Below are positions 18,705-52,651 of a DNA stretch of 64,000 nucleotides, one piece after another (the stretch's first letter is position 1; each line of letters begins with the position of its first letter). The DNA comes from a virus (lineage: Duplodnaviria > Caudoviricetes), in the IMG/VR virus record IMGVR_UViG_3300028832_000109, positions 32,001 through 96,000 of that record. One strand, written 5' to 3'. The position numbers and the translations under genes were made by a program. A model generated the notes under the pieces. That model saw nothing but the letters and a program-made list of their open reading frames with translations, searched no databases and had not been told where the DNA came from.

Positions 18705-18712
18705 AGGATTCC

Positions 18713-32222: not shown

Positions 32223-33310
32223 CAGGACACCGCCTTTGGCACGGCAACCTCTTCCAGCGGCATCTTCCCCACCATCTGGTACTGGGCGAGGAGGAGCTGC
32301 ACGTCGGCGAGGAACTCCTCGAGGGTGACCATTTGGTTGACCTGCGACTGGGTGGCACGGAGCGCCTTTCCGAGCAAGGAGGCAAACGAGATGGACAGGT
32401 AGTCAATCTGCCCGTTCGTCGGGAGCGGGATGCGTTTCTGGAAGTATACACCAAAGGGGACGTACACGCTTCGGTAGTCCTGGACATGGGTCGACAGGTA
32501 ATACTGCAGCTTGCGGAAATCCATCGCAATGGTCAGCTTGTATATGTCGGCGATGGTCTGTTCCCTGATGACGTTCGGGTGGCCAACTATGCTCCCGCCG
32601 TTTTCGAGGAACGTGAGGTGCATCGCGTTAATCATCGCGCGGATGTCCGGGTAGCAAGCCGATATGGTCTCCGCCAGGGTGTCCTTGCTCCACGTCCCCT
32701 TGCTGATGTCGGTCTCGGTCTTCGCAATGTAGCGAAGCCTCTTGTATATGCGGCGCCTGTACTCGACATCGTCCTCCGAGTGGTCGAATGAAATCGGCTG
32801 GCAGCGGGAACGGATGGCCTCACGAATCTGCCAGATTGAGTTGCAGGTAAGTATAAAACGAAGGTTGGACGAGGTTGCCTCGATGAGACTCTGTAGCTTC
32901 GTGTAGAAGGAATCGGGATTGGACGGGTTGTCCGCCTCGTCGATGACGTAGTATTTCGGAAGACCGTTCCCGGACCTGTACATGCCGCCCTCCTCGATTG
33001 ACTGCAGAATCTCGGAGTCGCGCCTGGCATAGATTACCTCGCGCTCGGCGCCAAGCATCAGGGGGAACGCCATGGCCAGGCTCGTCTTCCCTGTACCGGG
33101 GGAGCCGGAATGGAATATGTAGTTGTTGTACCCGCCAAGCTTGATGGCGTTGCGTATGATGTTGTCGAGCCTTGTCGGGAGTATGATTTCGTCCAGGTTC
33201 ACACCCCGATACTTCTCCACCCAGGCACGCGTACGGTCGTCGGACACATTTACCGTTGACTGGTCGTTCTGTAAGGGCTGACCCGTTATAAGGTCCACTT
33301 CTTGTTCCAT
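32222..33310 (-). CDS. Clamp loader large subunit (gp44/RFC AAA+)
   Basis: WVEKYR, GSPGTGKTS, IDEAD, FILTCN, AIRSRC, PDIR. Confidence 0.95.
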   Translation of the reverse strand: MEQEVDLITGQPLQNDQSTVNVSDDRTRAWVEKYRGVNLDEIILPTRLDNIIRNAIKLGGYNNYIFHSGSPGTGKTSLAMAFPLMLGAEREVIYARRDSEILQSIEEGGMYRSGNGLPKYYVIDEADNPSNPDSFYTKLQSLIEATSSNLRFILTCNSIWQIREAIRSRCQPISFDHSEDDVEYRRRIYKRLRYIAKTETDISKGTWSKDTLAETISACYPDIRAMINAMHLTFLENGGSIVGHPNVIREQTIADIYKLTIAMDFRKLQYYLSTHVQDYRSVYVPFGVYFQKRIPLPTNGQIDYLSISFASLLGKALRATQSQVNQMVTLEEFLADVQLLLAQYQMVGKMPLEEVAVPKAVS

Positions 33311-33328
33311 AGGTTATACCTCGCTACC

Positions 33329-33354
33329 AAATATAGCAAAGACCGGCATAAACT
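33329..33354. promoter_or_regulatory. Divergent pair TTGCTATATTT (-, 33329-33339) / ATAAACT (+, 33348-33354)
   Basis: Serve clamp loader operon and ORF 33362. Confidence 0.7.
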
Positions 33355-33361
33355 GTCGGAT

Positions 33362-33718
33362 ATGAGCGTCATTCTCAACTTCATGAACAAGGTCACCGAG
33401 AAGGACCCCGAACTCCGGGGCAAGGTCGCCGGCATGTACCGGAACATCTTCGAAAGCTCGGCCACCGACATCAACGCAAAGCAGATTGCCGCACAACCGG
33501 GAACTTGCCAGCAGGGAATAGCCCCGAACGGGCGCCTTGACCGGAACACGGAAATGCCTACGGACGAAACAGTGGCGCGACTGATGAAGAACTCGTACGC
33601 GGCCCGGTTCGGCCAATGGTGCGGCTCGGTTTCTCCGGGAAGGACTTCACTCGGAATGTGGGGTGGTACCGGCCCTCAGAACGTTAACGCGTCCACGGAT
33701 TCCGGGACCACTAAGTAA
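33362..33718 (+). CDS. Small late protein with shared leader (IFE-S)
   Basis: MSVILNFMNKVTEKDPELRGKVAGMYRNIFES; ATG 7 nt after ATAAACT. Confidence 0.65.
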   Translation: MSVILNFMNKVTEKDPELRGKVAGMYRNIFESSATDINAKQIAAQPGTCQQGIAPNGRLDRNTEMPTDETVARLMKNSYAARFGQWCGSVSPGRTSLGMWGGTGPQNVNASTDSGTTK

Positions 33719-34042
33719 TCAAACGACGGCGTCTAAATCGACATCGACCCGTTTCGCTTTGGGAGCCATATCATTGATTTCGCCAGCATCGTCCTGGACC
33801 TGGGCGCTAGGTACTTTGTTCACGTGAACAGAAAAATCTACCGATACGTTGTATCTCCCCGTCTCGCGCGTCATGACGCTCGACTCTAGCGCTGCCATAA
33901 TCTCCTTTGCAATGCCGTCCGCGAGCTTGCACGATAGTGGCTGAGACACATACTCGCGAAACTCCTCTTTACTGAGAAGAGTAATCATGGGCATACTAAG
34001 CGACAATGAGATAGTCGGAGATTTCGATTCGGACGTCCCCAT
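33719..34042 (-). CDS. Hypothetical protein
   Basis: 107-aa ORF with AGGA RBS and TTGCTATATTT motif at 34073-34083. Confidence 0.6.
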   Translation of the reverse strand: MGTSESKSPTISLSLSMPMITLLSKEEFREYVSQPLSCKLADGIAKEIMAALESSVMTRETGRYNVSVDFSVHVNKVPSAQVQDDAGEINDMAPKAKRVDVDLDAVV

Positions 34043-34100
34043 AAGAATTTCCTATTGATGGTTTCCTGGGGCAAATATAGCAATTAATACACCGGCTGCA

Positions 34101-37088
34101 TCAAATCAGTTCCAGCATAGCGTCGCTCTCGTCATATTCCAGCTCTTCGGGCCAGCCAACGGCGGTGAAGAGTCGCCCGATGACCTGGGCGACAGACACC
34201 TTCCACTGTTCATCCCAGTCAATATAGAACATGTCTATCAGACGCTGTGGGCAATGGTCCCCGGTATAGCAAATGATACTCACGCCGAAATCATCGTCAG
34301 CCTTCTTGATGAATTTCATCTTTTCACCGGCGACGACCGGCTCGTACGTTTCCTGCGATAGCACGGGGTCGGTTTCGATAAGGTAGTTCCAGACCGATGC
34401 CGCCCGGCGACGCCAATCCAACTTGGCCAGCTGCTCTTGCGGAAGACGGAGTTGAATCGGGTACGGAATCGGTTCCTCCTTCATGCCGGACGGAATGGAA
34501 ATCTTCGTGTAGTCGCCCTTGTCAAGGGCATCGTAGAACTCGCGCTTGATATCGAGCAATCTTTCCCGCACCGCCTTACGGTCCATGGTCTTGAGCATGA
34601 GCTTCACCATGTCCATCATGCGTTCACGCGAGAAAAGCGTAGTGGAGCTGCGAACGATTTCCAGGCCGGTCACGGCGAAATCCGGAGTGAGCTCCATAGT
34701 ACCCGTACGTACGATGTTCCCGTCCTCGTCCTTCACCGGGTCCTTGTCAAGGTACACAATGTCTTCGTTGGATTCCGCTTCGCAGATGTACTTCTTCTTT
34801 GCCGTGACGATGGCCTTGTATATGCACTTCTCGCGTTTCAGGAAAAGCTCGTTCTTCAGGTATCCCCAGCGGTTCGCGTAGGCGAGCATGAACTCGTCCA
34901 GTTTTTCTTCCAGTATGACGGCATCCATCATTCGGCAGAAATCCGTCAGGCGGTAGCGGTTATAGATGATGCGGTACCCGTCTCCCCACACGATACCGTC
35001 ATGGAACATAATCTTCACCTTGGTAAGACCGCTCTTCGGGTCAACAACGCGGTTTTCCGGGTCATGCCATGTATCGTGGGCATAGCGGTTGCACATGCGA
35101 TTAAAGCACTTCTTCGATGCGAGTTCTTCATCATCGGAGTTGCCAAAAGTGTACCGCTCAACTTGCTCATGCCCCTTGTACACGATGACCTCTGTGCCCG
35201 TGCCCTGTTTCTGCCGGAAATTCTCGAACAGGTCCCCGACTTTACAGTAGAATGAGTCGGTGTCGCCATGTGACATGCGCTTGTAGAGAATCTGATTGTC
35301 AACGTCCTGCACCGTTCCAAGGTAGTCCGGGTTGATTGTCGGAACGTACCCGAAAGCGTTGATGAACCGCTGGTCCGAGACGACCTCCTCGTTCAAGTAA
35401 TGGGCCAGCTGCTCGATGGTGAACTTGATTAGATTGCGTCCATATGCCGTGATTGACGCGGCGTTGTCCACGTCGTAAAGCGGGAAGATGTTGGCGCCGA
35501 GCAGGCCGTATAGCGAGTTTCCAAGGACCTTGTACACCTTCTGCATCATGTCATAGATGTTGGTCATCTCGTGGTCGCCGGCCTTCTTCGCGGCCTTCAT
35601 CTTATTCTTCAAGTTCGCACGGCCGTCAAAAAGGAGACGGGTAACCTTCGGGACGATTCCTTCCTTGTCCTTCCGGAAGTATACCTTGTACCGGCCGTTG
35701 TGCGTCCACGGACTCTCTATGAGAGTAGCACGCTCTTCCGCAGTCATTATGTAGTCGAGAGGCTTAATGACCTTGGTCTCCGGGCTGGTATTGAATGTCA
35801 TCATTATGGACGGGTAAAGCGAACGGTAGTCATACGAGACGAGCCACTCGTAGAAACCTGGGATGGAGTAGACAAATGCTCCGGGATACTCCTCCTTCTC
35901 CTTCAGCTTGTATGCCGGGAACACCATGTTGTTCTGGTGGAGGTAGTTCATGACGAACCCCACCAGCATCTTCTTGGACTCGAAAACGAAAGAGAACGGG
36001 ACGTGGGCCTCGGCAGCAGCGGCAACGCAGAGCTGGAACATGCGCTCGTGGAGCTCGATTTTCTTCAGAAGCCTGACGTCCTGCCAGTTATACAGGATGA
36101 ACTGTGACCAGTAGTTCTTCCACGACCGATAGCCATCCGGGAGCGGGGCCTTGTGTTCGCCGCACACCTTGTTGCCGATGTAGTCGAGCTTGTACGAAGG
36201 CTCCTCGGTAAAGGTGTACTTGCGGTATAGCGCAAGGAAGTCGATAACTTCGGTACCCGCTATCTGCAGCTCGCCCTTATCTGTCATCCAGGCCTTCTTG
36301 AACTGAGCCGGGAGCCTGGACAACTGCTTGAGTTCTACGCCGAGCTGCTCGGCGCGGTTCGCCATGTACGTAGTATCGTAAGAGAAGTTCCAGCCGGAGA
36401 GTATCGCTACCTCGTTGCGGCCTATTTCAGAGAAAAGCTGGTTGAGGAGGTCTTTCTCGGTGGCGCACAGGACGTACTTTCCGTTCTCCTTGGCCATCTC
36501 CTCCTTGACGTAATCCTCGACATCCTTCCCGACCCCGTAGGTTATGTAGTTGTCGGTAGTCGAGAAGTAAATCGTCACACAATTAATTGGGTATTCGGCG
36601 CGGTGGGCCGCTGGAAAGCGGCCTGTAGTCTCCACCTCTATATCGAGGAAGCATATGTTGATTTTCTTCATGTCCGGCTTCAACATGCCGGTATGTTCGT
36701 AATGCTTCTGGAGGAACCTGGCCCGGGGGTCAATGTCTATCTCCGCAATCTCGTTGTGCGGCCCGCGATTGTTGTTCCAAATGTCACGTTCCTTCCTTGT
36801 ATGGGCACGAGCGACATACATGGGTTTCCCGTATATGTCAGTCATACCACATGGTATAGCGCCATACTGCCCGCGGTTTGGCGTATAGAACGTGTTAACG
36901 ATGCGCTGCTGCTCCATCGTCCCGTCATCATACCACAGAAACAGGTTGTCTGTATCCCTGTCGTGGTATATGGCCGACCACATCCTGTACTGCTTCGGTG
37001 GCTCGTTAGCGGAGTATAGGCTTGCCGAGCCGATGGCAGTCTGCCAGGTGGTCTGCACCGGGTCACTAGCTGTCATTAACTGTTCCAT
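34101..37088 (-). CDS. Family B DNA polymerase (gp43-like)
   Basis: ExoI FLDIEVE, ExoII GWN..YD, ExoIII YNWQDV; YDYRSLYPSI, KVLGNSLYG, GDTDS, KKKY, GLEIVRS. Confidence 0.97.
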   Translation of the reverse strand: MEQLMTASDPVQTTWQTAIGSASLYSANEPPKQYRMWSAIYHDRDTDNLFLWYDDGTMEQQRIVNTFYTPNRGQYGAIPCGMTDIYGKPMYVARAHTRKERDIWNNNRGPHNEIAEIDIDPRARFLQKHYEHTGMLKPDMKKINICFLDIEVETTGRFPAAHRAEYPINCVTIYFSTTDNYITYGVGKDVEDYVKEEMAKENGKYVLCATEKDLLNQLFSEIGRNEVAILSGWNFSYDTTYMANRAEQLGVELKQLSRLPAQFKKAWMTDKGELQIAGTEVIDFLALYRKYTFTEEPSYKLDYIGNKVCGEHKAPLPDGYRSWKNYWSQFILYNWQDVRLLKKIELHERMFQLCVAAAAEAHVPFSFVFESKKMLVGFVMNYLHQNNMVFPAYKLKEKEEYPGAFVYSIPGFYEWLVSYDYRSLYPSIMMTFNTSPETKVIKPLDYIMTAEERATLIESPWTHNGRYKVYFRKDKEGIVPKVTRLLFDGRANLKNKMKAAKKAGDHEMTNIYDMMQKVYKVLGNSLYGLLGANIFPLYDVDNAASITAYGRNLIKFTIEQLAHYLNEEVVSDQRFINAFGYVPTINPDYLGTVQDVDNQILYKRMSHGDTDSFYCKVGDLFENFRQKQGTGTEVIVYKGHEQVERYTFGNSDDEELASKKCFNRMCNRYAHDTWHDPENRVVDPKSGLTKVKIMFHDGIVWGDGYRIIYNRYRLTDFCRMMDAVILEEKLDEFMLAYANRWGYLKNELFLKREKCIYKAIVTAKKKYICEAESNEDIVYLDKDPVKDEDGNIVRTGTMELTPDFAVTGLEIVRSSTTLFSRERMMDMVKLMLKTMDRKAVRERLLDIKREFYDALDKGDYTKISIPSGMKEEPIPYPIQLRLPQEQLAKLDWRRRAASVWNYLIETDPVLSQETYEPVVAGEKMKFIKKADDDFGVSIICYTGDHCPQRLIDMFYIDWDEQWKVSVAQVIGRLFTAVGWPEELEYDESDAMLELI

Positions 37089-37103
37089 AGGTCTTTATGG
37101 AAT

Positions 37104-37113
37104 AAATATAGCA
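37104..37113 (-). promoter_or_regulatory. TGCTATATTT promoter of polymerase gene
   Basis: Motif 15 nt upstream of ATG 37088. Confidence 0.65.
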
Positions 37114-37137
37114 CATAGTGGGCGGGGATGCTAGAGA

Positions 37138-37160
37138 AAATCCCGGAAAATCCGGGATTT
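37138..37160. terminator. Hairpin terminator downstream of ORF 37204-37860
   Basis: AAATCCCGG-aaaat-CCGGGATTT, T-rich flank on minus strand. Confidence 0.65.
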
Positions 37161-37925: not shown

Positions 37926-38672
37926 CTAAAAGTCCCAATCGAGCAACAACCCGACACGCCCTCGCCATGGTTCGGTGTATTTTGCGGTCATTCCTCTCTT
38001 TTTGCAGGCATTGATAAATTCGTTTGCGGCAACCGGGTCAAATTCTTCCTCATGGAACCATATACCGGTATGGCCGTGTGCCCAGTGAACCTGTCCACTG
38101 CTTATCTGCGACTTTATGCCATCAAGGCCCGGTATTGCCTTGCCGACTTCCTTTTCGGCCGCATCAATCTCGCCAACGAGAAGCTTGTCCTTTTCCTTTT
38201 CCAAGGCCTCGTCGGTGAAGTTTACCCTCATCATGATATCCGTCGCGTTCATTGTCCAGAAGTTTGACCGGATACCGGCATCGGCTAGCATTTGGACCAG
38301 TTCCGCCATGGTTGACTGCACCACGGGATTGTTTGCCTCGTTCTGTACATTTAAAGCGGATAACTGTATTCTTCCGGTAGGCTCGCGCTCGGACAGTATA
38401 TCGTTAAGCCCGGCCAGTATTTTTCTACCGAATGTCCCAAGGACCCTGAGATGATATTTTGCACTTGCAGGACCTTCTGCAGTCGGGGCCTCGTTGGCCA
38501 GACCGGAAATCTTCTCGTCCAGACGTGCAGAAAAATTCTTAATTCTGTCGCCCACCGGCTGCAGCGTGTATTTTGTTGACTCCATGAGCGCACACTCAGC
38601 GAACGCTCGTTCCGCCGACTCGAAATTGGGACACAACAAGCTCAAATCCATTACCGGCATATCATCCTCCAT
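37926..38672 (-). CDS. Late hypothetical protein (FE-S, LME-S sites)
   Basis: 248 aa; ATAAACT at 38683-38689. Confidence 0.7.
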   Translation of the reverse strand: MEDDMPVMDLSLLCPNFESAERAFAECALMESTKYTLQPVGDRIKNFSARLDEKISGLANEAPTAEGPASAKYHLRVLGTFGRKILAGLNDILSEREPTGRIQLSALNVQNEANNPVVQSTMAELVQMLADAGIRSNFWTMNATDIMMRVNFTDEALEKEKDKLLVGEIDAAEKEVGKAIPGLDGIKSQISSGQVHWAHGHTGIWFHEEEFDPVAANEFINACKKRGMTAKYTEPWRGRVGLLLDWDF

Positions 38673-38682
38673 GTTATTCCAT

Positions 38683-38706
38683 AGTTTATGCTCCAGTCGA
38701 TAAACT
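38683..38706. promoter_or_regulatory. Divergent ATAAACT late promoters (38683-38689 -, 38700-38706 +)
   Basis: AGTTTAT-gctccagtcg-ATAAACT. Confidence 0.7.
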
Positions 38707-39324: not shown

Positions 39325-39964
39325 GACTTCCACGGCCAGCCACGAGCTGCCCATATTCAACGAATTGAGCAAGGAATCCGGACTCCCGGTAAGCGAGATA
39401 AAGGCCAGGTTCCGCAACAAGATGCTCGAACTCCATCAGGAGGCGCTCGACGACCCATCCACGCAGGTGATGGGCGGGGATTCTCAAGAAATGGTGCACA
39501 ACGCAATCAACGAGTTGCGCAAGGAACTCCAGCACCCCGAAGAAACATCCAGCGACTCCGAAGAATACGATTCCATCATGGGTTTCGACCCGTCGCAGCC
39601 GGTGCCCGGTGCAGACATCTTCTCATCCGATGGCGGAGGTTTCGGAGGTGGCGGATTCGGTGGAGGGTTCGGTGGCGACATTGGCGGAACCGGTGGTGAC
39701 ATTGGCGGGTCTGCCGGCGGTGGATTCGGCGGAGGCATAGACAATATGGACCTCGGGTTCTCTGATGAAGGCATGGACGCCGTAAACTCCGTAGCCAGCG
39801 AAGGATACGAAGACCCGAACATGTCCCCGGCCGAGTCGGCTGGAGAAGTAAACGCCATGTCGGAGCTCGAACCGGACATCCCGGACGGGACCGACAATAC
39901 TGAAAACGGCGGTTCCGAAGAACCGCCGCCAGAAAATCCGGAACCCACCGAAGACAACGGCTAG
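39305..39964 (+). CDS. Acidic Gly-rich late protein
   Basis: Start MDLNLP (GGAG RBS) overlapping GNAT end; GGGFGG repeats at ~39630-39740. Confidence 0.65.
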   Translation: MDLNLPKTSTASHELPIFNELSKESGLPVSEIKARFRNKMLELHQEALDDPSTQVMGGDSQEMVHNAINELRKELQHPEETSSDSEEYDSIMGFDPSQPVPGADIFSSDGGGFGGGGFGGGFGGDIGGTGGDIGGSAGGGFGGGIDNMDLGFSDEGMDAVNSVASEGYEDPNMSPAESAGEVNAMSELEPDIPDGTDNTENGGSEEPPPENPEPTEDNG

Positions 39965-41184: not shown

Positions 41185-41230
41185 AAAATTCGCTCCTTTT
41201 CCGTTAAAACTATGACATTTCAAGGCAACG

Positions 41231-42847: not shown

Positions 42848-43732
42848 CTATTCCACCAGGCTTTCGTGGTTGATTTCGCCACCGTCGCTCTCCATGCCGG
42901 CAACGTACATGGAAATCGGGTCGGCTGGGTCGGCGCCCGGTATGTTGGAAAACGCCTTCACGGTCACCTTGTCGCGCTGGGCAGACTTGATGTGGCGAAC
43001 CTCCACCTCGTAGTCCGTGTCGATGCCTTTCAGGATGTTGAAGTAGATTGCCGGAATCTTGCGGAACTTGTCGTGCGAGCTGGCGTAAGCGGCATCTATG
43101 TTGGCCGCGGCCCCCATCTTGGTGCAGTTCCTCGGGATGACGTTGGTAATCTGCTGTCCGGTTCGTCCCTTCATGTAAATGCTGACCTTGGTGTGGGTGA
43201 GCACGACGGAGACAAACTGGCAACCTGGGACCATCTTCAGCTCGTCGCACATCGTCTTCAACTCGTTGCGGTCCAGTATGACGGTAGACAGCAGGTTCAT
43301 GGGGTCCTTGTCGCGGTCGCAGGGGCAGTGCCTGGACTTGGCGTCGAAACGGGTCGGGTCGGCGCATATGCTACGCGCGACCTTCGTCGCGGCCCCATCC
43401 GCGTCGTTCATGAACCTGACCATAGGGTATACGTGACCGTTCGTCAGGGTCTCGTCGAGTACGCTGACGTTTGCGACAGGATTTCCGGGAAAGCCGACGA
43501 GTTCGCAGAACCTGATGAATTCCATCATCGAGGCGACACATACCTCGTTCCCGGAAAAGTTAAGGTCGCTCGGACCAGCCGAGATGTGCAGGAAGGTCGC
43601 GGTTGTCGGCACCGTTATGCGGCACCGCCCGTTTCCCTTGAAGAACACGGTGGCCTTGGACTTGCTTACCATCGTGAGTTTTTTCAGCAGGGCAAAAAAC
43701 TGCGGGCTCATTGTAATTATTTGAGGTTCCAT
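42848..43732 (-). CDS. Sliding clamp (gp45-like)
   Basis: MS..FFALLKK...VS....F.KG, CVASMMEFIRFCELV, ADP motif; in replication operon. Confidence 0.65.
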   Translation of the reverse strand: MEPQIITMSPQFFALLKKLTMVSKSKATVFFKGNGRCRITVPTTATFLHISAGPSDLNFSGNEVCVASMMEFIRFCELVGFPGNPVANVSVLDETLTNGHVYPMVRFMNDADGAATKVARSICADPTRFDAKSRHCPCDRDKDPMNLLSTVILDRNELKTMCDELKMVPGCQFVSVVLTHTKVSIYMKGRTGQQITNVIPRNCTKMGAAANIDAAYASSHDKFRKIPAIYFNILKGIDTDYEVEVRHIKSAQRDKVTVKAFSNIPGADPADPISMYVAGMESDGGEINHESLVE

Positions 43733-43743
43733 AGGTCCATCCT

Positions 43744-45750
43744 TTAAATGTCTTCCATAGCTTTAGACTCAAAAGTAGCAATTCTGTCGATTGCCAGATT
43801 CATCTCGGTAGTTCCCGGCCGCACGTAATACTCCATCCCGGCCCAGCTGTCGACCGGTATCTGCATCATGGGCACTCCAGTCTTGCGGCATATCCCGGAC
43901 AACACAGGTCCCAGCAAGCCGCGCTGGTCCCCGAGCTGCTGGAAGAACCGCATGTTATCCAGTTCCCTTATGAAGTCGCCGCGGATGGCGACGAACGGGC
44001 CGTCCATTACCTGGACCGCGTGCGGGCCATGCCCGGAAATTCCGCGCACCTTCCGGTGCTCCCCGGTAATCTCGCTGTACAGCCCGTATTCTCCGTAGGA
44101 TTCCGGGCAGCGGTCCCAGGAACCGTCCGGGAGAAGATAGCCGTACCCGAACGGGGCTACCGCGCCGACGTTGGGAGGAACCTCCTCGAGCTGCCGGTGG
44201 AACGAGGGGTCGGTTATGAACGAAGTGGCCGCGACTATGACGACCCACGATGGAGTGACCTTCACCGACTGCTGCCCGTATATCTTCAGTGCGTTGTATA
44301 TCGCTCGGGCGAATGACGGCGGAATCTGCCTGCGGCCGAACGAAATGCCGCACCCGACCCTGAACAGGCACTCGTCCTTCGCGTTTGGATACTCGTCGTA
44401 CCGGCCGCGGTATCCGTTCGAGCTGAACACGAAGGTCACTATCTGCGGGTCGTCGGAAAGCCGGAGCACGTCGTTACGGCTAGGACGGCTCTGCCTGGTG
44501 GCGGGTCCCCCGGAAAGCACGTTGCGTATCGCGTCAAGCCTGGCCTTCTCGGCGTGAACCTTGGCGAGTACATCTTTGCGGTGCGTGTTCCTGGCTTCCT
44601 CCGATGCCTTGAACGCCCCCGCGATTGCCGCCTCCATCTGTTCGACAGGGTTGGAGAACACCACTTCCGGCGTGGCCGACTGCACTATGCTGGAATATTT
44701 GCGGCTGGTCCTCGAGGGCTTGTGCTTGCGCACTATCTTGACATCCACGCCGGATGCGTATACCGCGTCGACATCGGACTGCAGCCATCCGCGAGGGGGT
44801 ACTTTCGTGCTCCCGGTAGGCGGCACAATCTCCCCGGTCGGCAGAACTCGGCGGCATTTCCCGGATATGAACTCGTCGACCCAGCGCTCGCTCTTCATGA
44901 ACTTGTATCGGATGGCACGCCTGGTGTAGTGCTGGAATCCCTCGCAGTAGAACAGGCGCATGTTCTCCTTCTCTATCGCCTCCTCTATCTCCATGCGGGA
45001 ATAGCACCACTTCGCCGACCCGGAACCTACGGGATTGGATTGAACCTTCACTATCCCGAGCATGCGCATGTTCTCGAACTTCGCATCCCCGAATCCGGCA
45101 TATACGGAAGCCACGTACGGAGAGAGGTAATCCGGGAGTGGCTCCTTCCGGTATCTCCGGCGGTCGGATTTCCGCAGGTAGGCAAGGAGCTGGGCCTTGC
45201 TGTAGAGGTATGGGCAGCGTGGCTTGCGCGGTTCGGCGGAAATAAGGCCCTTCCGGGTCTGCTCCCTGAGGTACTTGGGGGACATGTCGATGAGCAGCGC
45301 GGCGACACGGCGGGGGACCGGGTGGGTAAGCTGCCCTACAAGATACTCGGGGAACCATTCCCGGTTGAACCGCTCGATGTCCTTGCGGTATACCGCGTTG
45401 TGCCCGGTTCGCGCCGATATGTGGGTTATCAGTTTCCCCTGCCTGACATAGCGGGTGAACTGGCGCGGAACCATGTGAAGTTCGAGCATCGCGTCCGCCA
45501 ACGTAAACTCGTGGAGAGGATGCAGGGTGTCGGGAGGCGAGACACGATACTTGGCGATGGCGTCCATCGCGGCAGCATACCGGAACATCTTCTTCCTGGC
45601 CTTGTTGTACCTGTACGGCAGGTCGGCGAATATGCCGCTGGAACGGAGCTTATGTCCGGGAATTCCTAGGTATTTTGACAGGAATTCGAACCCGATGAAT
45701 TCCGGTACAGTGCCGCGGCGCCGGTATGCATTTTTTAGTATCGCGGGCAT
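43744..45750 (-). CDS. Multi-HTH (MerR/Xis-like) protein fused to degenerate GT-A-like domain
   Basis: About five wHTH units, e.g. TLADAMLELHMVPRQFTRYVRQGKL...YRKDIERF; C-term PNVGAVAPFG...VQVMDGPFVAIR. Confidence 0.65.
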   Translation of the reverse strand: MPAILKNAYRRRGTVPEFIGFEFLSKYLGIPGHKLRSSGIFADLPYRYNKARKKMFRYAAAMDAIAKYRVSPPDTLHPLHEFTLADAMLELHMVPRQFTRYVRQGKLITHISARTGHNAVYRKDIERFNREWFPEYLVGQLTHPVPRRVAALLIDMSPKYLREQTRKGLISAEPRKPRCPYLYSKAQLLAYLRKSDRRRYRKEPLPDYLSPYVASVYAGFGDAKFENMRMLGIVKVQSNPVGSGSAKWCYSRMEIEEAIEKENMRLFYCEGFQHYTRRAIRYKFMKSERWVDEFISGKCRRVLPTGEIVPPTGSTKVPPRGWLQSDVDAVYASGVDVKIVRKHKPSRTSRKYSSIVQSATPEVVFSNPVEQMEAAIAGAFKASEEARNTHRKDVLAKVHAEKARLDAIRNVLSGGPATRQSRPSRNDVLRLSDDPQIVTFVFSSNGYRGRYDEYPNAKDECLFRVGCGISFGRRQIPPSFARAIYNALKIYGQQSVKVTPSWVVIVAATSFITDPSFHRQLEEVPPNVGAVAPFGYGYLLPDGSWDRCPESYGEYGLYSEITGEHRKVRGISGHGPHAVQVMDGPFVAIRGDFIRELDNMRFFQQLGDQRGLLGPVLSGICRKTGVPMMQIPVDSWAGMEYYVRPGTTEMNLAIDRIATFESKAMEDI

Positions 45751-46910
45751 CAGAACAAGACCTCCGCCTTGCGAGAATTGGCGTGATTCTCCTTGTATTT
45801 CTTGATTCCCTCGAATCGCTTTGCTGCAGCTGTCTTGCTCATGTTGCCATATTTCAGCGCGAACAGCACCGCTGACCCTTCCGGTTCGCGGACCCTGGCC
45901 TCGATTACGTCGCGGCGGACGAATCCGTCCTCGTCAAGCGGGAATTCCCCGGCCGTCACGGCAGCATTCACGTCCTTGCTGTGTATTCCTTCCCAGGTGA
46001 ACCACTTGAAGCCGAGCTTGCACGTCTTCTCCCTCGCTTCCCTGGCCTTATCATCGTTGTCCCATATGACTACCACGCGGTCCTTGTGCTGCATGATGTC
46101 CGGATTCTTCATAACAAGGCTGTCGAAATGCTCGATACCGCCTATCGCTATCGCGTTATGGACGAACAGCGAGTCAACTGTACCTTCAAGGACATAGAGG
46201 GGTTCATCAAAATTAACGAAGCCGATATTGTACGCCTCCCGGTGAACCCCGGCAAAGTTCAGGTACCTCAGAGGATTCCTCTTATCAATCGCTCGAGCGT
46301 CAAACTGGCTCCACCCGCCTCCAAACCGGTAAAACGGGATAATTAGACGGTTTTTGTACTTGTTCCCGGTTGGGCGCCCATTCGCGTCAAGAATGTAATT
46401 GCCGTTGGCATCGCGGTCGAGAAATTGGTCACCCTGAAGACATACGAACCAGTCGGAATATACTTCCTCTCGTATCATACGTTCTCGGCAATAGGCCAGT
46501 GCCGCCTCGGCGAGTGGATGATTCGCCGTTATCGGGATAATCTCCCCTTCCTTGAACGGCAATGTAGTGGGAACTTCGATTCTTGCGGTCGGCGCGTTCC
46601 GGACCTCCTTGGGTTGCTTGCCCTCGTTTGGGCCAAACGCCTGAAACATTAACTGATGGTACGCAGTCTCATCACGCTCCTTCAGCCATTTTGCATAAGG
46701 AATTTTGGGCGTACACTTGTAACATACATATAACCAGGTGTCGGTATATATGTATGCCTTCTTCTTGTTTGGCTGGTCCGGGCTGCCGCATTGCGGACAT
46801 ACGAAGTTATAGAACCTAGGGTTCGTGTCGTCTAAATTATAGCTCCCCAGCTGTTCCCTAATTGACGTATCGTACACCGAGGCCGGTATGTCATCAAAAC
46901 TAAATGCCAT
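45750..46910 (-). CDS. DNA primase (gp61-like)
   Basis: YNFVCPQCG...YVCYKC zinc finger, RLIIPF, ARAI, YVLEGTVDSLF, IWDND, KDVN. Confidence 0.92.
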   Translation of the reverse strand: MAFSFDDIPASVYDTSIREQLGSYNLDDTNPRFYNFVCPQCGSPDQPNKKKAYIYTDTWLYVCYKCTPKIPYAKWLKERDETAYHQLMFQAFGPNEGKQPKEVRNAPTARIEVPTTLPFKEGEIIPITANHPLAEAALAYCRERMIREEVYSDWFVCLQGDQFLDRDANGNYILDANGRPTGNKYKNRLIIPFYRFGGGWSQFDARAIDKRNPLRYLNFAGVHREAYNIGFVNFDEPLYVLEGTVDSLFVHNAIAIGGIEHFDSLVMKNPDIMQHKDRVVVIWDNDDKAREAREKTCKLGFKWFTWEGIHSKDVNAAVTAGEFPLDEDGFVRRDVIEARVREPEGSAVLFALKYGNMSKTAAAKRFEGIKKYKENHANSRKAEVLF

Positions 46911-46915
46911 GCTTT

Positions 46916-46957
46916 AAATATAGCAACTGCGGGTCGACTGGTAGCCGGCCCGCAGTT
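46916..46957 (-). terminator. SSB terminator hairpin (46925-46957) abutting primase promoter TTGCTATATTT (46916-46926)
   Basis: AACTGCGGGCCGGCT-acc-AGTCGACCCGCAGTT then GCTATATTT. Confidence 0.6.
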
Positions 46958-46972
46958 ATTTTCCGATGTCAA

Positions 46973-48652
46973 TTAGAACGGGAGGTCGTCGTCGCTATCG
47001 GTCTCGACAATCGGACCATTCGGGTCCACTGCCGGAGCCCCGTTGTGCGTGAACTGCACAGGGTTGGACAGTGGTGGCGCACTTTGCGGTACGTATCCCG
47101 TGGACGCCGGCTGACCCATCGGCGCAGCGGGTGCTGCTGGCGAAGGTGTGGCAGGGGCAACGCCCATCCCGAAGTTGGGCATAGCTGCGGGCTGTGCGGT
47201 AGGCATGGCTGCTGGCTGTGCGGTAGGCATGGCTGCGGGCTGTGCGGAAGGCATAGCGGCGGGCATAGCTCCAGGCATTCCAAACCCTGCACCAGGAACG
47301 GCATTCTGTGCGGAGATACCGGCAGCGAAACCTGGGGTTGCAGGAGCCTGAGCCGGGGTGGCAGGTGCAGACGGAATGCCGACATTCATCGCATTCGGTG
47401 TCTGGGCATATGCCGTGGTCACCGGGGCAGCGGATTCAGGAATCGGATTGGGCATAGCGCAATTCGGGATTGCTGCTTCCGCCTGACCCATAAACGCAGC
47501 GGGATTGCTATTAGTAACAATCTTTGCGTTTGCCGGAACACTCGGGATGCTGTTTTGCGGCATGGCGGCACCACCGGTGGGGAACGGCTGCGAAGCGAAT
47601 GACGGAGACAGCGGAGAGACCTGAGCCGGCTGACCAAACTGTGGCTGCTGTCCGAACTGGGGCTGCTGGCCATACTGTGGCTGCTGGCCGAACTGCTGCT
47701 GGCCGTACTGCTGCCGACCGTATCCACCTTTAGCGGCCATCTTCTGCTGAGCGAGCTTGTTGGCTTCCTGCCAGAATTCGGCAAGGTCCTGGATAGCCTG
47801 GTCAGGTGTCGGGATGTCGTCGAAAACGAACCTCAAGTCATGGCACTGGTCAAGAAGAGCCATGATAGCATTCTCATCCGCGGCAATACCGATTGGTGCA
47901 CCAGTATTCGGGTCGGTCACCTGCTTGAATGCAAGCGGGTACGACTTTTCAACGAACTTGCTGCCCTTGTATGTCGGAGCGCCCTGGCGGCCGTCGCCGT
48001 AAGTCTTGGTGGCATCCCATGCGCCAACAAGGAAGTAATCCTTTCCGTTCACGGGGTCATACGGGATGAATGCGTCGCCAGTATCAACATTGATTGTTCC
48101 CTGCTGCTGAGGCTGCTGGGCCTGCTTCTGCTTTTCCATATAATTGTCGACAGGGGTCTGGAACTGCTCGTGCTGGTACTTGGAATGGGCCCAAACCTTC
48201 ACCTGGTTATTGAGTTCGGGGTGGTTTTCGTCCTGACGAATGAGGAAGTTCCCGTACCATTCTTCTTCTGCAAGCTGGCGGAGGAATTTCTTGAGCTCCT
48301 CCTTACTGGCTCCCCGCTCCTTTGCAGCATTGTATCGAGCCCATACATCCTCGCAGTAAGGGCATGAGATAACACCGGGGATATTCTTGCAGCATTTCTT
48401 AACAAGCATCTTCCCGGAACCCAGGTCCTTGATGCGGTGCACCAAGACGGAGGTGTAGGGGTAGGCCCTCATGTCGTGGCCAAGAGGCATTGGACGGAGA
48501 AGGGCCTTGTATGAGGGATTGTTCTTTGTTACTCTTGCACGGTAGATTCGCGGGTCTTCTGCTACGCCGCCTTGGGGTGAGACCGTCGGCATTGCTGCCG
48601 GCATCTGCACTGTGAGCATACCCATGTTGGGTACCTGAGTATTCTGTTCCAT
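46973..48652 (-). CDS. Single-stranded DNA-binding protein (gp32-like) with long low-complexity tail ending DDDLPF
   Basis: LLRPMP, H..K, C...CPYCE, WYGNFLIRQD..HPELN..VKVW, PYDPVNG.D, PTY..SKF. Confidence 0.85.
   Translation of the reverse strand: MEQNTQVPNMGMLTVQMPAAMPTVSPQGGVAEDPRIYRARVTKNNPSYKALLRPMPLGHDMRAYPYTSVLVHRIKDLGSGKMLVKKCCKNIPGVISCPYCEDVWARYNAAKERGASKEELKKFLRQLAEEEWYGNFLIRQDENHPELNNQVKVWAHSKYQHEQFQTPVDNYMEKQKQAQQPQQQGTINVDTGDAFIPYDPVNGKDYFLVGAWDATKTYGDGRQGAPTYKGSKFVEKSYPLAFKQVTDPNTGAPIGIAADENAIMALLDQCHDLRFVFDDIPTPDQAIQDLAEFWQEANKLAQQKMAAKGGYGRQQYGQQQFGQQPQYGQQPQFGQQPQFGQPAQVSPLSPSFASQPFPTGGAAMPQNSIPSVPANAKIVTNSNPAAFMGQAEAAIPNCAMPNPIPESAAPVTTAYAQTPNAMNVGIPSAPATPAQAPATPGFAAGISAQNAVPGAGFGMPGAMPAAMPSAQPAAMPTAQPAAMPTAQPAAMPNFGMGVAPATPSPAAPAAPMGQPASTGYVPQSAPPLSNPVQFTHNGAPAVDPNGPIVETDSDDDLPF
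47178..47716 (-). repeat. Intragenic SSB repeats: 24-bp (AAMPTAQP) x3 at 47178-47249 and 15-18-bp (QQPQFG) units at ~47630-47716
   Basis: Directly visible in DNA and protein. Confidence 0.85.
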
Positions 48653-48728
48653 AGGAGATTTCCTTATAATGTGTCCGGTTTAACTTGCCGGCATTAATAA
48701 ATATAGTAAAATCCAAAGACAAAAAGTG

Positions 48729-49424
48729 TCATCCGGATGATTTTTCTTCGCTCGGGGTATCTTTTTTCGCCTTCAGGTGCGGAATAGCGAGTTTCGGACC
48801 CAGGTCGTGCCCGAGCAATTTCATCTGTTCCGCCTTTTCCAGGGACGCCTCAACAAGCTGTTCGAAGTCATCGGGCACGGTATATTCCTCACCAAAGTCC
48901 GACATGGCCTTCTCCAGCTCGGCCGCACACTCGCTAAGGATGTCCTCGAACTTCCAGTCAATGCACTTGGCAACCGTATTGTCGATGGTGCACGCCTCGA
49001 CGAACCGCTTGGAAATCTCGTCGTGGCTAAGCGCCTCCTCGGTAACGTTCGGGTTGTACTCGTCATCCACGTGCATGACGCCCTCGTGTTTCTCGTCCTT
49101 GACCGTGAGAATCTTCTTCGCTTCGGTATCGGCCATGTATTCGGCGCCGGTGACTTCCTCGGTCTCGCGCTCGAACTCGGGCGCACGCATCATGTAGTCC
49201 TTCCCGAGGAACTCGTTCTTTCGCGCCTTGCGCAGGTCGACCAGCCATTTCTGGCAGGCTTCGGTTTTGACGAGCTGCCCGTGGGATGACTTTTCCAGGT
49301 CGGCATTGACGATGAGCGCCGACGTACGCGCGATTTCCTTCTCGCGCGGTGCGAACTTCTTGTCGAATTCCTCGTTTTCTTCCTGGACACGCTTTCCATA
49401 TCTCGGGAATTTAAACTCAGCCAT
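48729..49424 (-). CDS. Hypothetical acidic protein
   Basis: 231 aa, overlapping upstream ORF. Confidence 0.7.
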   Translation of the reverse strand: MAEFKFPRYGKRVQEENEEFDKKFAPREKEIARTSALIVNADLEKSSHGQLVKTEACQKWLVDLRKARKNEFLGKDYMMRAPEFERETEEVTGAEYMADTEAKKILTVKDEKHEGVMHVDDEYNPNVTEEALSHDEISKRFVEACTIDNTVAKCIDWKFEDILSECAAELEKAMSDFGEEYTVPDDFEQLVEASLEKAEQMKLLGHDLGPKLAIPHLKAKKDTPSEEKSSG

Positions 49425-50115
49425 TGTTGCTCATCTCCTGCATGATTTCGTCGATTTGGTCCATATCGATGTCGATGTTGGACAGGTCCGGCTCGATTGA
49501 CGGCACATCCTCTACCACACGGCGTACTTTCCCCTCGCCAAGGCACAGACGGCACGGTTTCCCGTTCACTTCGCCGGTACCGCCGCATTCGGGACACTCC
49601 ACTATGTCCGGTTGTTCCTCGAGCCGCTTCTCCCCTACCTTGACGGGATGCTTGGCCACGTAATCTAGTTCGCTGTCGGTAATCTTGATATTCTTTTCCG
49701 CCGCCATCTTCTGCTTGATGTCGTTCTCGAGGATGAGGGTGAACTTGTTCGCATCTACATGGGGGGCCAGTGCTAGCACAATGTCAACCATGCCGAAGCC
49801 CGGAACTTTCGTGGAATCTTCCATTATCCTCTCCGGGCGAGCATACTTGTTGTAGACCTGCCAGATGGCCAGGTTCACCTTGTCCTTCGCTTTCTTGAGA
49901 TAGGAATCCGGCATCTTCAGCGTGATACAGATATCTCCAGGGAACCTCGACGTCTGAAGGAAAGCATTAATTTCCCCCACTATATCGTCTACCCCGAACT
50001 TCCTCTGCGCTTCCGAGCCGCTGGGCCCCATCTCGTCGCCACGATTGATGCCGTCAGTCTCTTGCGGGTCCCCGCTCAGACCGTCGTTGTCAGCATATTC
50101 TTCACCGTACCTCAT
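49417..50115 (-). CDS. Possible gp33-like late-transcription co-activator with CxxCxGxG zinc finger
   Basis: MVDIVLAL.....KF..IL...IKQKMAAE resembles gp33 core; CPECGGTG...CRLCLGEG; near gp32. Confidence 0.4.
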   Translation of the reverse strand: MRYGEEYADNDGLSGDPQETDGINRGDEMGPSGSEAQRKFGVDDIVGEINAFLQTSRFPGDICITLKMPDSYLKKAKDKVNLAIWQVYNKYARPERIMEDSTKVPGFGMVDIVLALAPHVDANKFTLILENDIKQKMAAEKNIKITDSELDYVAKHPVKVGEKRLEEQPDIVECPECGGTGEVNGKPCRLCLGEGKVRRVVEDVPSIEPDLSNIDIDMDQIDEIMQEMSNNG

Positions 50116-50150
50116 GTATATTCCGCCATAGGTGTATTCCGGTGTTGAAA

Positions 50151-50897
50151 CTATGCTTTTTTCTTTCTCACCGGTTTCTTGCGGCGGGCCAATGCTTCCA
50201 GGTCGATGGGCCAGTCATCGCGATGCACCACCTTGTAGTCGGCCAGGGCCTTTGTGCGGGAATCCGAGCGGAACAGAAGCAGTGCACGGGTGTCTTCCGG
50301 GATACTGTCGGGCCCAAGGAGTTCCAGCTTGATATGGTTACGGAGAATCTCGCACATCCAGAAGGCATCGCAAAGGTCGGCGTGAGGACTCTCGTACTGC
50401 TTAGGGAATTGCTCGAACTCAGGAAAATAGAACTGGGGATACAGCGCCTTGACTGCCTCGCACATGGCCGGTTTACCGGCATTACCGTTCCCCGTGGCGA
50501 AATGCTTAATCTGGGTAATCCCGTATGTGATTATCCCCTTCCCCTTTAGATAGAAGTGCCTGCGGTATATCCCACAATACTCCCCTATTTGGAAAATCGC
50601 ATTACTGTTACCCTTGTTGGCTTCCTCGTATGCATAATCCTCGAAAGCGATATACTTCACGTCATCCATGTCGCGGTCGAGAATGGCGAGTGCCCGTTCC
50701 TGCCTAACCAGGTGAGGAATCTTGTCGTAATCCGTGCCGATACACATGATGTGTACGTGGTCGGTTTCCAAGATAGCGTTCAGATGCGCCTGGAAACCGT
50801 AATAGTGGATGTCCTTGATGTCGAAGGTCTTGTCGTCGAGGTCCATTATGACCTTTCCGGTAGAGTCCATCGACGGGTCTATGCCTGCTATCTTCAT
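50151..50897 (-). CDS. RuvC-like Holliday junction resolvase
   Basis: IAGIDPS..STG, IAFEDY, IKHFATGNGNA.K, DLCDAF. Confidence 0.85.
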   Translation of the reverse strand: MKIAGIDPSMDSTGKVIMDLDDKTFDIKDIHYYGFQAHLNAILETDHVHIMCIGTDYDKIPHLVRQERALAILDRDMDDVKYIAFEDYAYEEANKGNSNAIFQIGEYCGIYRRHFYLKGKGIITYGITQIKHFATGNGNAGKPAMCEAVKALYPQFYFPEFEQFPKQYESPHADLCDAFWMCEILRNHIKLELLGPDSIPEDTRALLLFRSDSRTKALADYKVVHRDDWPIDLEALARRKKPVRKKKA

Positions 50898-50911
50898 GCG
50901 TTAAACCTACA

Positions 50912-52621
50912 TCAGATATAGTCCGACACGGTATCGTGCACGGTCGTTTCCGCGGTATTCGATACCTCAACTCCAAGCTTGCTTACTCCGCCGGGAATGC
51001 TGGCGTTCTCCTGCTTGGAAATGGCGCGTTTCGGTCCCTGTTTCTGCCCTCGTTGTGGAGAATTGATTTGCGGTTCGACCTCGGCCATAGCCGTATTGTA
51101 TGCGTTGACCTCGTCGGCCGTCGGGCTGAACCACCGCATCTTTCGGAAATCGCACCGGGTAAGGAACATGACTAGAGCCTGTCCGAGACGGGATTTCAGG
51201 ATGTAATGGCAGAACATGCCCATTGAGCGGAGTACGTCGTTCGCCGCGATGGAAATCATGAGGTCCGCCGTTTCGGCATACCCCGAGGAACCCTCGACCG
51301 ACTCTATACCAGCTTCCACGTTGTGGTAGCCGCTCCTGTTGAACTGCACGGCAGACACGCAGGCAAAGTTGCGCTCTATTGCAATGTCCCTCAACTGCTC
51401 GGCCTTCATCACGCCGTCGTTGTACATGCTGCTCTCGGTAAGCCGACCGCGGCTGGCCGGCTTCATGATTCCGATATAGTCGACGACCAGGAGGTCGAGC
51501 TTTCCATGGGCGAGTTCGAATGAATCTATCACCGCCTCGATTTCCACCGGGGTGGTCGTGGTCTTCATGTAGCGAACGTGCAGCTGGCCCGGCTTGGCGC
51601 CGACCGTTCCTGTGGCAGCGGCCGCTGCATCGATGCGTTCGCGTATTACGTCACCGGTAAGGTTGACGACATCATACATATCAACGCCGCATATGTTGGC
51701 CGCGAGACGCTGCCATACGTAATCTTCTGCAAGTTCCAGTGTAATGTAAAGTACGTTGAACCCGCTCTTGTATGCAAAGGCCGCCTCGCTACATAGAGTA
51801 AGCGACTTACCGATGTTTGGCTGACCGACGAAGAGGGTCAGCGTCTTGCGGTAATAACCGCCACCGGCCATCATCCCGTTCTGGTCCGGTCTACCTGTAT
51901 AGTAACGTATTTCGTTGATGCCAGACGGTATGCACTGCTTCTGCTCGCGGAGCTTCGCCAGCGCCAGTTCGGCATCGCTGTACATGTTCAGGCCGAGGTC
52001 AGTATGCAAACTGAAATTAACGGAAGCCTGCAAACGAGGAATAAGGTCTCGTATGCCGTCCACTCGCTTGTCGTGGATGGACTCCGCCGCACTTACGAGA
52101 ACTTCCTCGGAAAGACGCTCCTTGAAGAACGATTCCACCATCAGGACAACGTAGTCCTGGTGCATCGTCTGAATCGGGGTGTTGTATATGAAAATCAGCT
52201 TGTCGCGGGCCTGCAACGCGTATTCGTTGGCGCCCATCCCGGTAATCAGCTCCTGTGCAGTGGGAATCCGGTCATGTTTCTTCTCGAACATGCGCACGAT
52301 TTCCACGATTGTCCTGTTTATCGGGTCCCGGAACAGTTCCGGGCGCAGCGTATCCCTCAGCTTCGGCCCAACGGCGGCATCCTGGAAGAATACCCGTATT
52401 ACCAGGTCTTCCTGAGTGAGTGCATACACCTGCTGAGGAGGCTGCAAGTAACCGGGCTGCTGCCCGTTCAACTGAGCCTGCACTACCTGATTGGCTGCCT
52501 GCACAGCGGCCAACTGGGTATTCATCGCAGGATATATCGCCTGCTGTTGTACCATAGGCGCATACGCACCCTGCATAGTTGGTTGTGGCTGCGCATACGA
52601 CGGGTTAGCTAATTGTTCCAT
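50912..52621 (-). CDS. Replicative helicase (gp41/DnaB-like)
   Basis: GQPNIGKS, YITLELAE, VVDYIGIM, SAVQFNRSG, ETAD, KSR.G. Confidence 0.95.
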   Translation of the reverse strand: MEQLANPSYAQPQPTMQGAYAPMVQQQAIYPAMNTQLAAVQAANQVVQAQLNGQQPGYLQPPQQVYALTQEDLVIRVFFQDAAVGPKLRDTLRPELFRDPINRTIVEIVRMFEKKHDRIPTAQELITGMGANEYALQARDKLIFIYNTPIQTMHQDYVVLMVESFFKERLSEEVLVSAAESIHDKRVDGIRDLIPRLQASVNFSLHTDLGLNMYSDAELALAKLREQKQCIPSGINEIRYYTGRPDQNGMMAGGGYYRKTLTLFVGQPNIGKSLTLCSEAAFAYKSGFNVLYITLELAEDYVWQRLAANICGVDMYDVVNLTGDVIRERIDAAAAATGTVGAKPGQLHVRYMKTTTTPVEIEAVIDSFELAHGKLDLLVVDYIGIMKPASRGRLTESSMYNDGVMKAEQLRDIAIERNFACVSAVQFNRSGYHNVEAGIESVEGSSGYAETADLMISIAANDVLRSMGMFCHYILKSRLGQALVMFLTRCDFRKMRWFSPTADEVNAYNTAMAEVEPQINSPQRGQKQGPKRAISKQENASIPGGVSKLGVEVSNTAETTVHDTVSDYI

Positions 52622-52651
52622 AGGTCCACAAGTCCGTCAGTTATCTGTCGT

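Follow-up and report, generated by a model that had tools for sequence, protein, structure and literature searches.

T4 RegA, gp32 and gp43 are the textbook case of translational control of a replisome. To our knowledge, RegA had been regarded as restricted to those T4-like phages in which regA is present. Its binding sites, which are unstructured and either overlap the AUG or sit just 5' of it, occur on about 30 early mRNAs, including those of genes 44 and 45 (PMC3014915). The sites are A+U-rich and degenerate with a 5' poly(A) tract, and the protein consists of a helical core and two beta-sheets (PMC3014915). In the replication cluster of T4-like phages, regA is located immediately distal to gene 62 (PMC3014915). 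The operators of genes 32 and 43 are gene-specific and structured, with a pseudoknot plus an unstructured tract in gene 32 and a hairpin in gene 43 (PMC3014915, PMC535899). Here, we analyzed a 64-kb stretch of phage DNA, comprising bases 32001-96000 of the 108,608-bp IMG/VR record IMGVR_UViG_3300028832_000109 (hereafter the window; the whole record is labelled G000). In this window one short sequence, CCTATGGAAC, straddles the start codons of genes for a family-B DNA polymerase (PolB), a DnaB-like helicase, a probable sliding clamp, a gp32-like single-stranded DNA-binding protein (SSB) and the large subunit of the clamp loader. By analogy, this arrangement suggests a RegA-like logic with a different operator and without RegA. 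A literature search found no paper describing this motif.

The window contains exactly five copies of CCTATGGAAC, all on the minus strand (Table 1). The first-pass annotation of this DNA had placed the motif at these five replisome starts. All five proved to be exact matches, and the complete record holds the same five copies and no others. In dinucleotide-shuffled windows the mean count was 0.13, and none of 100 shuffles reached five. Upstream of every motif ATG, an in-frame stop is reached after 1-10 open codons, none of which could serve as an alternative start; the N-termini reported earlier (MEQEV, MEQLM, MEPQI, MEQNT and MEQLA) are correct. Judged by the start contexts of the other ATG genes, CCT...GAAC is expected at 0.014-0.047 genes and was observed at five (binomial P~4e-12). 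Thirteen called genes start with ATGGAA, and the preceding CCT together with the following C is found only in the five replisome genes. Seven other ATGGAA (Met-Glu) genes are without C-U at -2/-1, and none of them belongs to the replisome. The starts of the primase, UvsX-like, RuvC-like and structural genes lack the motif, as had been noted before. The invariant GAA codon, previously read as part of the signal, is indeed present but says little alone: in the non-motif genes, GAA and GAG stand at codon 2 in a ratio of 8:2.

Table 1. Positions of motif copies, promoter elements and candidate reader genes (window coordinates unless another record is named; aa, amino acids; nt, nucleotides; ORF, open reading frame).
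Feature	Position (strand)	ORF	Sequence	Remarks
Clamp-loader large subunit	33304..33313 (-)	32222-33310, 362 aa	CCTATGGAAC	phrog_168, 4e-40
Clamp-loader extended -10 promoter	33330-33338		TGCTATATT	
Family-B DNA polymerase (PolB)	37082..37091 (-)	34101-37088, 995 aa	CCTATGGAAC	PF00136, 7e-34
PolB promoter	37105-37113		TGCTATATT	inferred leader ~10 nt; no Shine-Dalgarno
Probable sliding clamp	43726..43735 (-)	42848-43732, 294 aa	CCTATGGAAC	
Second, weaker copy near clamp	43751..43760 (-)		GCTATGGAAG	26 nt upstream of clamp start, within 3' end of preceding gene
gp32-like SSB	48646..48655 (-)	46973-48652, 559 aa	CCTATGGAAC	phrog_224, 7e-8; PF08804 weak
SSB promoter-like element	48700-48708		TACTATATT	
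DnaB-like replicative helicase	52615..52624 (-)	50912-52621, 569 aa	CCTATGGAAC	phrog_19, 6e-61
Helicase promoter	52653-52661		TGCTATATT	
Conserved 92-aa ORF (p92)	54373..54380 (-)	54100-54378	CTATGGAA	A at -3; just upstream of UvsX-like gene
75-aa membrane-type ORF (p75)	record position 24907, outside window			weaker motif at start
5'-3' deoxyribonucleotidase	18701..18707 (-)	18216-18704	CCTATGG	partial motif; phrog_2643
5-codon mini-ORF (MAEYT)	50112..50132 (-)		CCTATGG	led by the motif; TGA overlaps ATG of 232-aa gene (49417-50115) as ATGA
Two-codon Met-Glu-stop ORF	38674..38684 (-)		ACTATGGAATAA	4 nt before ATG of 248-aa gene (37926-38672); fused to late-promoter-like ATAAACT
102-aa ORF (p102)	31445..31753 (-)			immediately distal to gp62-like 159-aa gene (31743-32222); slot of regA in T4-like phages
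Phage IF-1	539..757 (+)	72 aa		candidate reader or co-factor
Near-leaderless promoter examples	primase 46905-46925 (-); 18698-18722 (-)		TGCTATATT-type	ends 6-9 nt before ATG; also across G004, G002
ATAAACT + ATGGA sites	38668-38690 (-); 60977 (-); 2438-2481 (-); G004 82828, 171000			

Beyond the full copies, the shorter word CTATGGA was found at, or 0-60 nt upstream of, a same-strand gene start at 12 of its 17 sites in the record. Called genes account for ten of these start-linked sites against 0.43 expected; the uncalled ORFs p92 and p75 supply the other two. In full and weaker copies alike the motif spans -3 to +7 around the start. A logo built from 26 sites reads R(-5) A(-4) C(-3) C U AUG G A A N M(+8), with the consensus RACCUAUGGAA. 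Since the 26 sites were chosen for CU-AUG-G, independent information comes only from positions -5, -4, -3, +5, +6 and +8. Positions -3, +5 and +6 are near-invariant among the sites. Judged from these alignments, the conserved core is (R)ACCUAUGGAA, and what has been kept as a unit in evolution is CCUAUGGAA, with A favoured at -4 (in RNA form the motif reads GGACCUAUGGAACA). The 10-mer first taken as the unit therefore stands in its CCUAUGGAA part; its tenth base, C, is specific to this genome and is replaced by A, G or T in relatives. The restriction to five genes, likewise, holds for the full 10-mer and is too narrow for the signal, which has weaker copies on p92, p75, the deoxyribonucleotidase gene and mini upstream ORFs (mini-uORFs).

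Compared with the RegA system, this locus shows both likenesses and differences. As in T4, one signal at or just 5' of the AUG marks early replication and nucleotide-metabolism genes, and this signal is linear and without stable structure. A clade-specific gene, p102, occupies the regA slot distal to the gp62-like gene. In contrast to T4, there is no PF01818 protein (~122 aa) here, and p102 is predicted to be all-helical and non-homologous. The motif is sharp, with a near-invariant CCUAUGGAA; it lacks both a high A+U content and a poly(A) tract. Whereas T4 gp43 and gp32 repress themselves through separate operators, PolB and SSB share one motif here. Those T4 proteins are nucleic-acid-binding replisome components that repress at the initiation region, and a replisome protein of this phage could likewise read the motif; the T4 operators, however, are structured and serve single genes, whereas the present motif is linear and shared by five. 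With CsrA/RsmA sites the motif has in common that AUGGA holds the A(N)GGA core and that the site overlaps the ribosome-binding region. A second GGA lies upstream at many sites, either in the Shine-Dalgarno (SD) sequence or at -8 to -5, in variable position. The CsrA consensus obtained by SELEX is RUACARGGAUGU, and the flanks of our motif are unlike it. Further differences are that no CsrA of the phage was found, that the GGA is not in a consistent hairpin loop and that the invariant C-2 and U-1 lie outside the CsrA core.

Four of the five replisome genes are assigned by family matches (Table 1). The 294-aa clamp candidate gave no direct family match, and a profile search against the PDB returned nothing. 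Its structural model (predicted local distance difference test, pLDDT, 42) was too poor for searching, although a beta-alpha-beta-beta-beta pattern is repeated in it. A relative of the protein in locus L122 (30% identical) matches phrog_223 'processivity factor' (5e-4). Gene position, the fold pattern of the poor model and the phrog_223 match of the L122 relative are three weak grounds on which we regard the protein as a probable sliding clamp. Its gene has no promoter of its own and comes after a 668-aa gene. The SSB gene varies in nature: between 47178 and 47680, in the repeat-rich middle part, strains are distinguished by indels of 24, 18 and 3 nt that keep the frame. The SSB of the relative G004 has an additional N-terminus of ~65 aa, rich in Q, G, M and P.

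A nucleotide search of the phage collection with this DNA gave zero matches. In a protein search of the collection, PolB was 25-29% identical to the polymerases of cultured T4-like phages. Relatives with 24-86% polymerase identity were found in IMG/VR and JGI metagenomes, on contigs of up to 473 kb. Because relatives reach this size, and because one of them (G004, 260 kb) is rated 91% complete and the gene order of our record is collinear with parts of 160-260-kb relatives, the 108.6-kb record is a fragment of an uncultivated jumbo phage from the cattle rumen. CheckV completeness of the record is 26%, although it is listed with inverted terminal repeats. The phage DNA occurs in runs from bovine, sheep and other animal gut metagenomes in 11 studies. 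Five related records (G001-G005) were taken whole, their genes were called and orthologues were matched; more starts were obtained from further, L-numbered loci. All records among G000-G005 except G004 are fragments.

In relatives of at least ~76% protein identity, the motif is kept at the starts of PolB, helicase and clamp, and less constantly at SSB. For PolB, aCCTATGGAA was found in the G003, L094-L096, G004/L098/L099 and L152 types, with the variants gCTATGGAA in G001, aCTATGGAA in L110 and CTTATGGAA in L097. The helicase motif is present in G003 and G004 and reads gCTATGGAA in G001. The clamp start carries CCTATGGAA in all relatives of at least 76% identity but the G003 type, with aCTATGGAA in G001. 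At SSB the motif is retained only in G003 among relatives. The full motif of the clamp loader is restricted to this genome; in the L091 type CCTATGG is present and the second codon encodes Ala. In clades of at most 74% PolB identity, the promoter is kept 6-11 nt from the ATG and the motif is absent.

The surroundings of the motif change freely. After Met-Glu, the PolB N-termini diverge (MEQLMT, MENVST, MEATIT, METMEL), and both the leaders from -4 to -30 and residues 3-8 vary around the conserved motif. Pairwise conservation in motif genes versus other genes was 100% versus 48% at -1, 62% versus 37% at -2 and 76% versus 41% at +6, while positions -4 to -30 show a background of ~30%. Variants are shared within genomes: CA stands at +7/+8 in five sites here (MEQ) and AA or AC in G003. 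In G001, -3 is G or A, not C, at all sites, and the form at PolB, helicase and clamp is (G/A)CTATGGAA (GCUAUGGAA as RNA). Such concerted, lineage-specific variants are what co-evolution of many sites with one reader would give. Strain contigs from four DNA runs (0.5-2% diverged) were compared over 43001-53000. Among the listed changes one falls near a motif, at 43724 (clamp codon 3, CCT>CCC), and lies outside it; fewer than one change is expected in the 30 motif bases. The motif is thus non-random, locked to start codons, limited to the replication and early class and conserved amid diverging surroundings. The start enrichment and the conservation in relatives bear out the first-pass annotation, which had proposed a start-locked, replication-class signal at the nucleic-acid level.

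RNA folding of 19 sites gave no common structure or shared hairpin, and the mean unpaired probability of the motif ranged from 0.15 to 0.92. An upstream AGG had been suggested to pair with the CCU, and the three quoted cases (clamp loader, clamp and SSB) are in the sequence. Pairing is possible at about half of the sites, with stems of 3-4 bp, because an AGG SD happens to be there. It is not general: PolB, most helicase and p92 sites and several orthologues are without the AGG, and there is no common fold. The SD strength of motif genes is unremarkable (-5.2 versus -5.6 kcal/mol), being average in four of them and nil at PolB. Helicase, SSB and clamp have ordinary AGGA/GGA SDs, and the structural genes have strong SDs and no motif. 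The phase of CCT-ATG-GAA with the ATG is constant, while promoter distance varies from 9 to 46 nt and the clamp site lies inside an operon without a promoter. The motif is used in a single orientation and is without dyad symmetry. Because of this fixed phase at any promoter distance, the single orientation and the missing dyad, the motif would appear to act in RNA, at translation, rather than as a DNA operator. Clustered or tandem copies in non-coding DNA, as a sign of a sponge RNA, were not found; G004 has only two orphans, at 225290 and 244571. Nor was an antisense partner found, and plus-strand copies of CTATGGAA sit inside opposite-strand genes.

Three promoter-like words recur in this DNA: TGCTATATT, ATAAACT and GTAGTTT. 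The first fits TGnTATAAT, the extended -10 form, and lies in front of four of the five full-motif genes, with the ATG at 15-46 nt. Measured from the -10 element, the ATG lies at 16 nt in PolB, 14 in p75, 12 in p92, 10 in the deoxyribonucleotidase gene, 19 in the clamp loader, 31 in the helicase and 46 in SSB. The first four fall in the span of about 6-16 nt expected of short-leader mRNAs, with the clamp loader at its edge and helicase, SSB and the promoterless clamp outside it. In the deoxyribonucleotidase gene, CCTATGG follows the TATATT of the early promoter by 9 nt. A quarter to half of the TGCTATATT genes have their ATG at most 9 nt from the -10 element, and for this reason these genes are predicted to be leaderless or nearly so, with leaders of at most 3 nt. 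ATAAACT resembles a T4-type late promoter. In a subclass it is directly joined to ATGGA (ATAAACTATGGA), at two of ~16 sites here and at least two in G004, with one further TTAAACTATGGA here. These joins are far above chance and produce tiny ORFs such as Met-Glu-stop. The word (G/A)TAGTTT(T/C)C was observed 15-30 nt before several starts in all clades (49417-50115, 39961-41223, 61960-62421 and orthologues) and may be a middle-type promoter.

The start of the p92 orthologue carries the full CCTATGGAA in G003 and ACTATGGAA in G001. At 55637 (-) in G004, the module of promoter and motif upstream of UvsX is kept, and the 68-aa ORF behind it is unrelated to p92. In G004, mini-ORFs of 5-6 codons led by CCTATGG precede a 425-aa ATPase gene and the clamp loader, with the ATGA overlap. 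For the G004-type clamp loader, frame and ATGA overlap of the mini-ORF are both kept in three sequence variants. Here the motif thus seems to have been retained upstream of the clamp-loader start, at a distance of one coupled step.

Three genes were considered as candidate readers. p102 is present in seven of seven motif-clade loci that cover its slot and missing in at least nine motif-less loci with a clamp loader; in the motif-less G002 it is absent and the flanking genes abut. Its C-terminal domain is conserved, and the N-terminus is basic in relatives. AlphaFold predicts p102 to be all-helical, at low confidence (pLDDT 63.5). Foldseek gave no match at E<=0.001, the best Z in a VIA-wide search was 3.6, a profile search against PDB sequences gave nothing below E 0.1, and an atlas search gave only template modelling (TM) scores of 0.35-0.42 to HhH/NusA-type entries. 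In G003, G001 and G004, a further 38-75 open codons precede the p102 domain in its frame, and this stretch overlaps, in a different frame, with the 3' end of the gp62-like gene. p102 may have a true start further upstream or be made as a frameshift fusion with the gp62-like protein.

The second candidate is a phage-encoded initiation factor 1 (IF-1), whose gene had been reported before and is present. Phage-encoded IF-1 is known in huge phages (PMC7162821). The gene occurs in G000, G003 and G001 and is absent from the motif-less G002 and G005; the G004 contig ends just before the expected place. A search for further IF-1-bearing phages gave only two unrelated contigs. The protein is ~50% identical to IF-1 of Gram-positive bacteria, a likeness that hints at a Firmicute host. 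Phe, Thr and Thr replace the conserved His, Arg and Tyr (..NGHE.., ..KIR.NY..). The third candidate, p92, carries the motif on its own gene, as expected of an autoregulated repressor. All three are leads, not evidence. In addition, G004 encodes an initiator-like tRNA-Met at 198002-198076 (+) (L039:18002-18076), which shows a mismatch at 1:72 and has three G-C pairs in its anticodon stem. The anticodon loop, CCCAUAA, carries C33 in place of the near-universal U33. As a motif-specific reader this tRNA was weakened by the same loop in the motif-less G002.

We tentatively interpret the motif as a linear RNA operator for coordinate translational control of replisome genes, read by a clade-specific factor, and hold this to be slightly short of an even chance. 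In such a mechanism, (R)ACCUAUGGAA would be a linear, unstructured RNA signal centred on the initiation codons of PolB, helicase, clamp, SSB, clamp loader and a few small early genes. At the ribosome-binding site it would be bound by a sequence-specific factor found only in this clade, which would compete with the 30S subunit or guide it and in this way set the translation of all replisome parts together. The most plausible sign would be shut-off or feedback after enough replisome has been made. Such a system would follow the logic of the T4 RegA regulon, although neither its operator sequence nor its regulator would be related to those of T4. Action in RNA, a trans-acting reader and the sign of regulation are what we infer here. 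Several results weigh against this interpretation. The first-pass annotation had proposed a RegA/CsrA-like factor, which was not borne out: six-frame family searches gave no RegA (PF01818) match at E<=10 in G000-G005 and no CsrA (PF02599) match in this record or its five relatives, one of them 91% complete. No regulator was found for the motif; p102 has a low-confidence model without an informative match and no family or atlas lead, and for p92 Pfam, PHROG and the atlas likewise yielded none. That p102 and IF-1 share the distribution of the motif rests on a single clade boundary, which any clade-specific gene would match. Sites turn over, with the clamp-loader copy only here, SSB in two lineages and the clamp copy lost in G003, so that the motif is dispensable gene by gene. 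Outside -2, -1 and +6 the conservation among orthologues is modest, and only four lineages were measured. Among the runs listed with the phage, none was an RNA run. Finally, the CCTATGG mini-uORFs fit an initiation-promoting signal at least as well.

This last point leads to the main rival, in which the motif is a cis start context read by the translation machinery, tuned to short-leader early mRNAs and perhaps working with the phage IF-1 or an initiator-like tRNA; it would give the replisome genes similar, moderate initiation rates. We consider it rather unlikely, but it accounts for much. Early promoters lie 6-16 nt before many ATGs, and leaders are predicted to be absent or almost absent in a quarter to half of early genes. 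The predicted leaders of PolB, p92, p75 and the deoxyribonucleotidase gene, at 3-10 nt, would be almost all motif, PolB being without an SD. A CCTATGG mini-ORF with ATGA overlap is what would be expected of a ribosome landing site feeding the coupled gene. A UAUGG core could extend the pairing with the initiator anticodon loop (U-1 with A37), G004 encodes the C33 tRNA-Met, and IF-1 is found in three motif genomes (G000, G003, G001) and not in the two motif-less ones (G002, G005). However, the most highly expressed class, the structural genes, and most other early genes lack the motif, and in helicase, SSB and clamp it stands behind ordinary SDs, either on a long leader or within an operon. The C33 loop is also found in motif-less G002, and we know of no sequence-specific reading of an A-site codon by IF-1. 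A signal for host ribosomes would, moreover, leave the concerted genome-specific variants unexplained unless hosts differ. A variant that combines this view with a clade-specific factor is a private replisome initiation code, in which a divergent IF-1 or p102, possibly together with the C33 tRNA, would read UAUGGAA at the 30S P/A sites and gate the replisome mRNAs. We regard this candidate as doubtful.

The remaining explanations place the signal at other levels. A sequence-specific endoribonuclease could cut next to the AUG and make replisome messages leaderless or inactive, as T4 RegB does at GGAG. The phage family is predicted to lean heavily on leaderless or nearly leaderless early mRNAs, and the motif abuts the AUG exactly and is linear, 8-10 nt long and structureless, like the long RegB consensus (PMC3014915). 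Processing would bring little gain, however, to PolB and several small genes, whose promoters lie within ~10 nt of the motif, and no nuclease candidate was found; this explanation appears improbable. A role as a DNA operator, at which a transcription factor would block or time transcription from an early promoter just upstream, is very improbable. It would be consistent with the four of five sites that lie 15-46 nt after an early -10 element, with the nearer sites of p92, p75 and the deoxyribonucleotidase gene, and with CTATGGA following the late-promoter-like ATAAACT at several places. Against it stand the constant ATG phase at any promoter distance, the promoterless clamp site, the single orientation without dyad and the mini-ORF copies, which keep their frame relation to the main start. 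Least probable of all, and hardly to be expected, is an effect at the protein level, in which proteins would be marked for stability or processing by a Met-Glu(-Gln/Asn) N-terminus (Met retained, slow deformylation before an acidic residue) and the CCU would be incidental. Orthologues do keep Met-Glu while later residues change, and MEQ heads five proteins in this genome. But C(-3) and A(-4) are strongly preferred although they were not selected on (C(-2) and U(-1) are fixed by the choice of sites), and seven other Met-Glu proteins, none of the replisome, are without the upstream bases. Copies of the motif also stand at the start of mini-ORFs and of a two-codon ORF, none of which yields a protein, and in L091-type clamp loaders CCTATGG is kept while the second residue is Ala.

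A very distant T4-like jumbo lineage, common in gut metagenomes of cattle and sheep, has thus reached the layout known from T4, one signal at the start codons of replisome genes, with a different and much sharper sequence and without RegA. A reader protein, if found, would stand for a new family of sequence-specific RNA-binding proteins whose target, of 9 nt, is defined. Such a protein would also open a way to learn how host ribosomes are steered by huge phages that encode IF-1 and tRNAs of their own. A private initiation code, if true, would mean recognition of start-codon context by a virus-encoded initiation component instead of a classical repressor.

With regard to RNA genes, Rfam and tRNA scans of the 64-kb window gave no matches. 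The tRNA genes number 24 in G004, 53 in G002 and 0 in this record. Two giant ORFs of ~2510 aa each were observed close to the two ends of the record.

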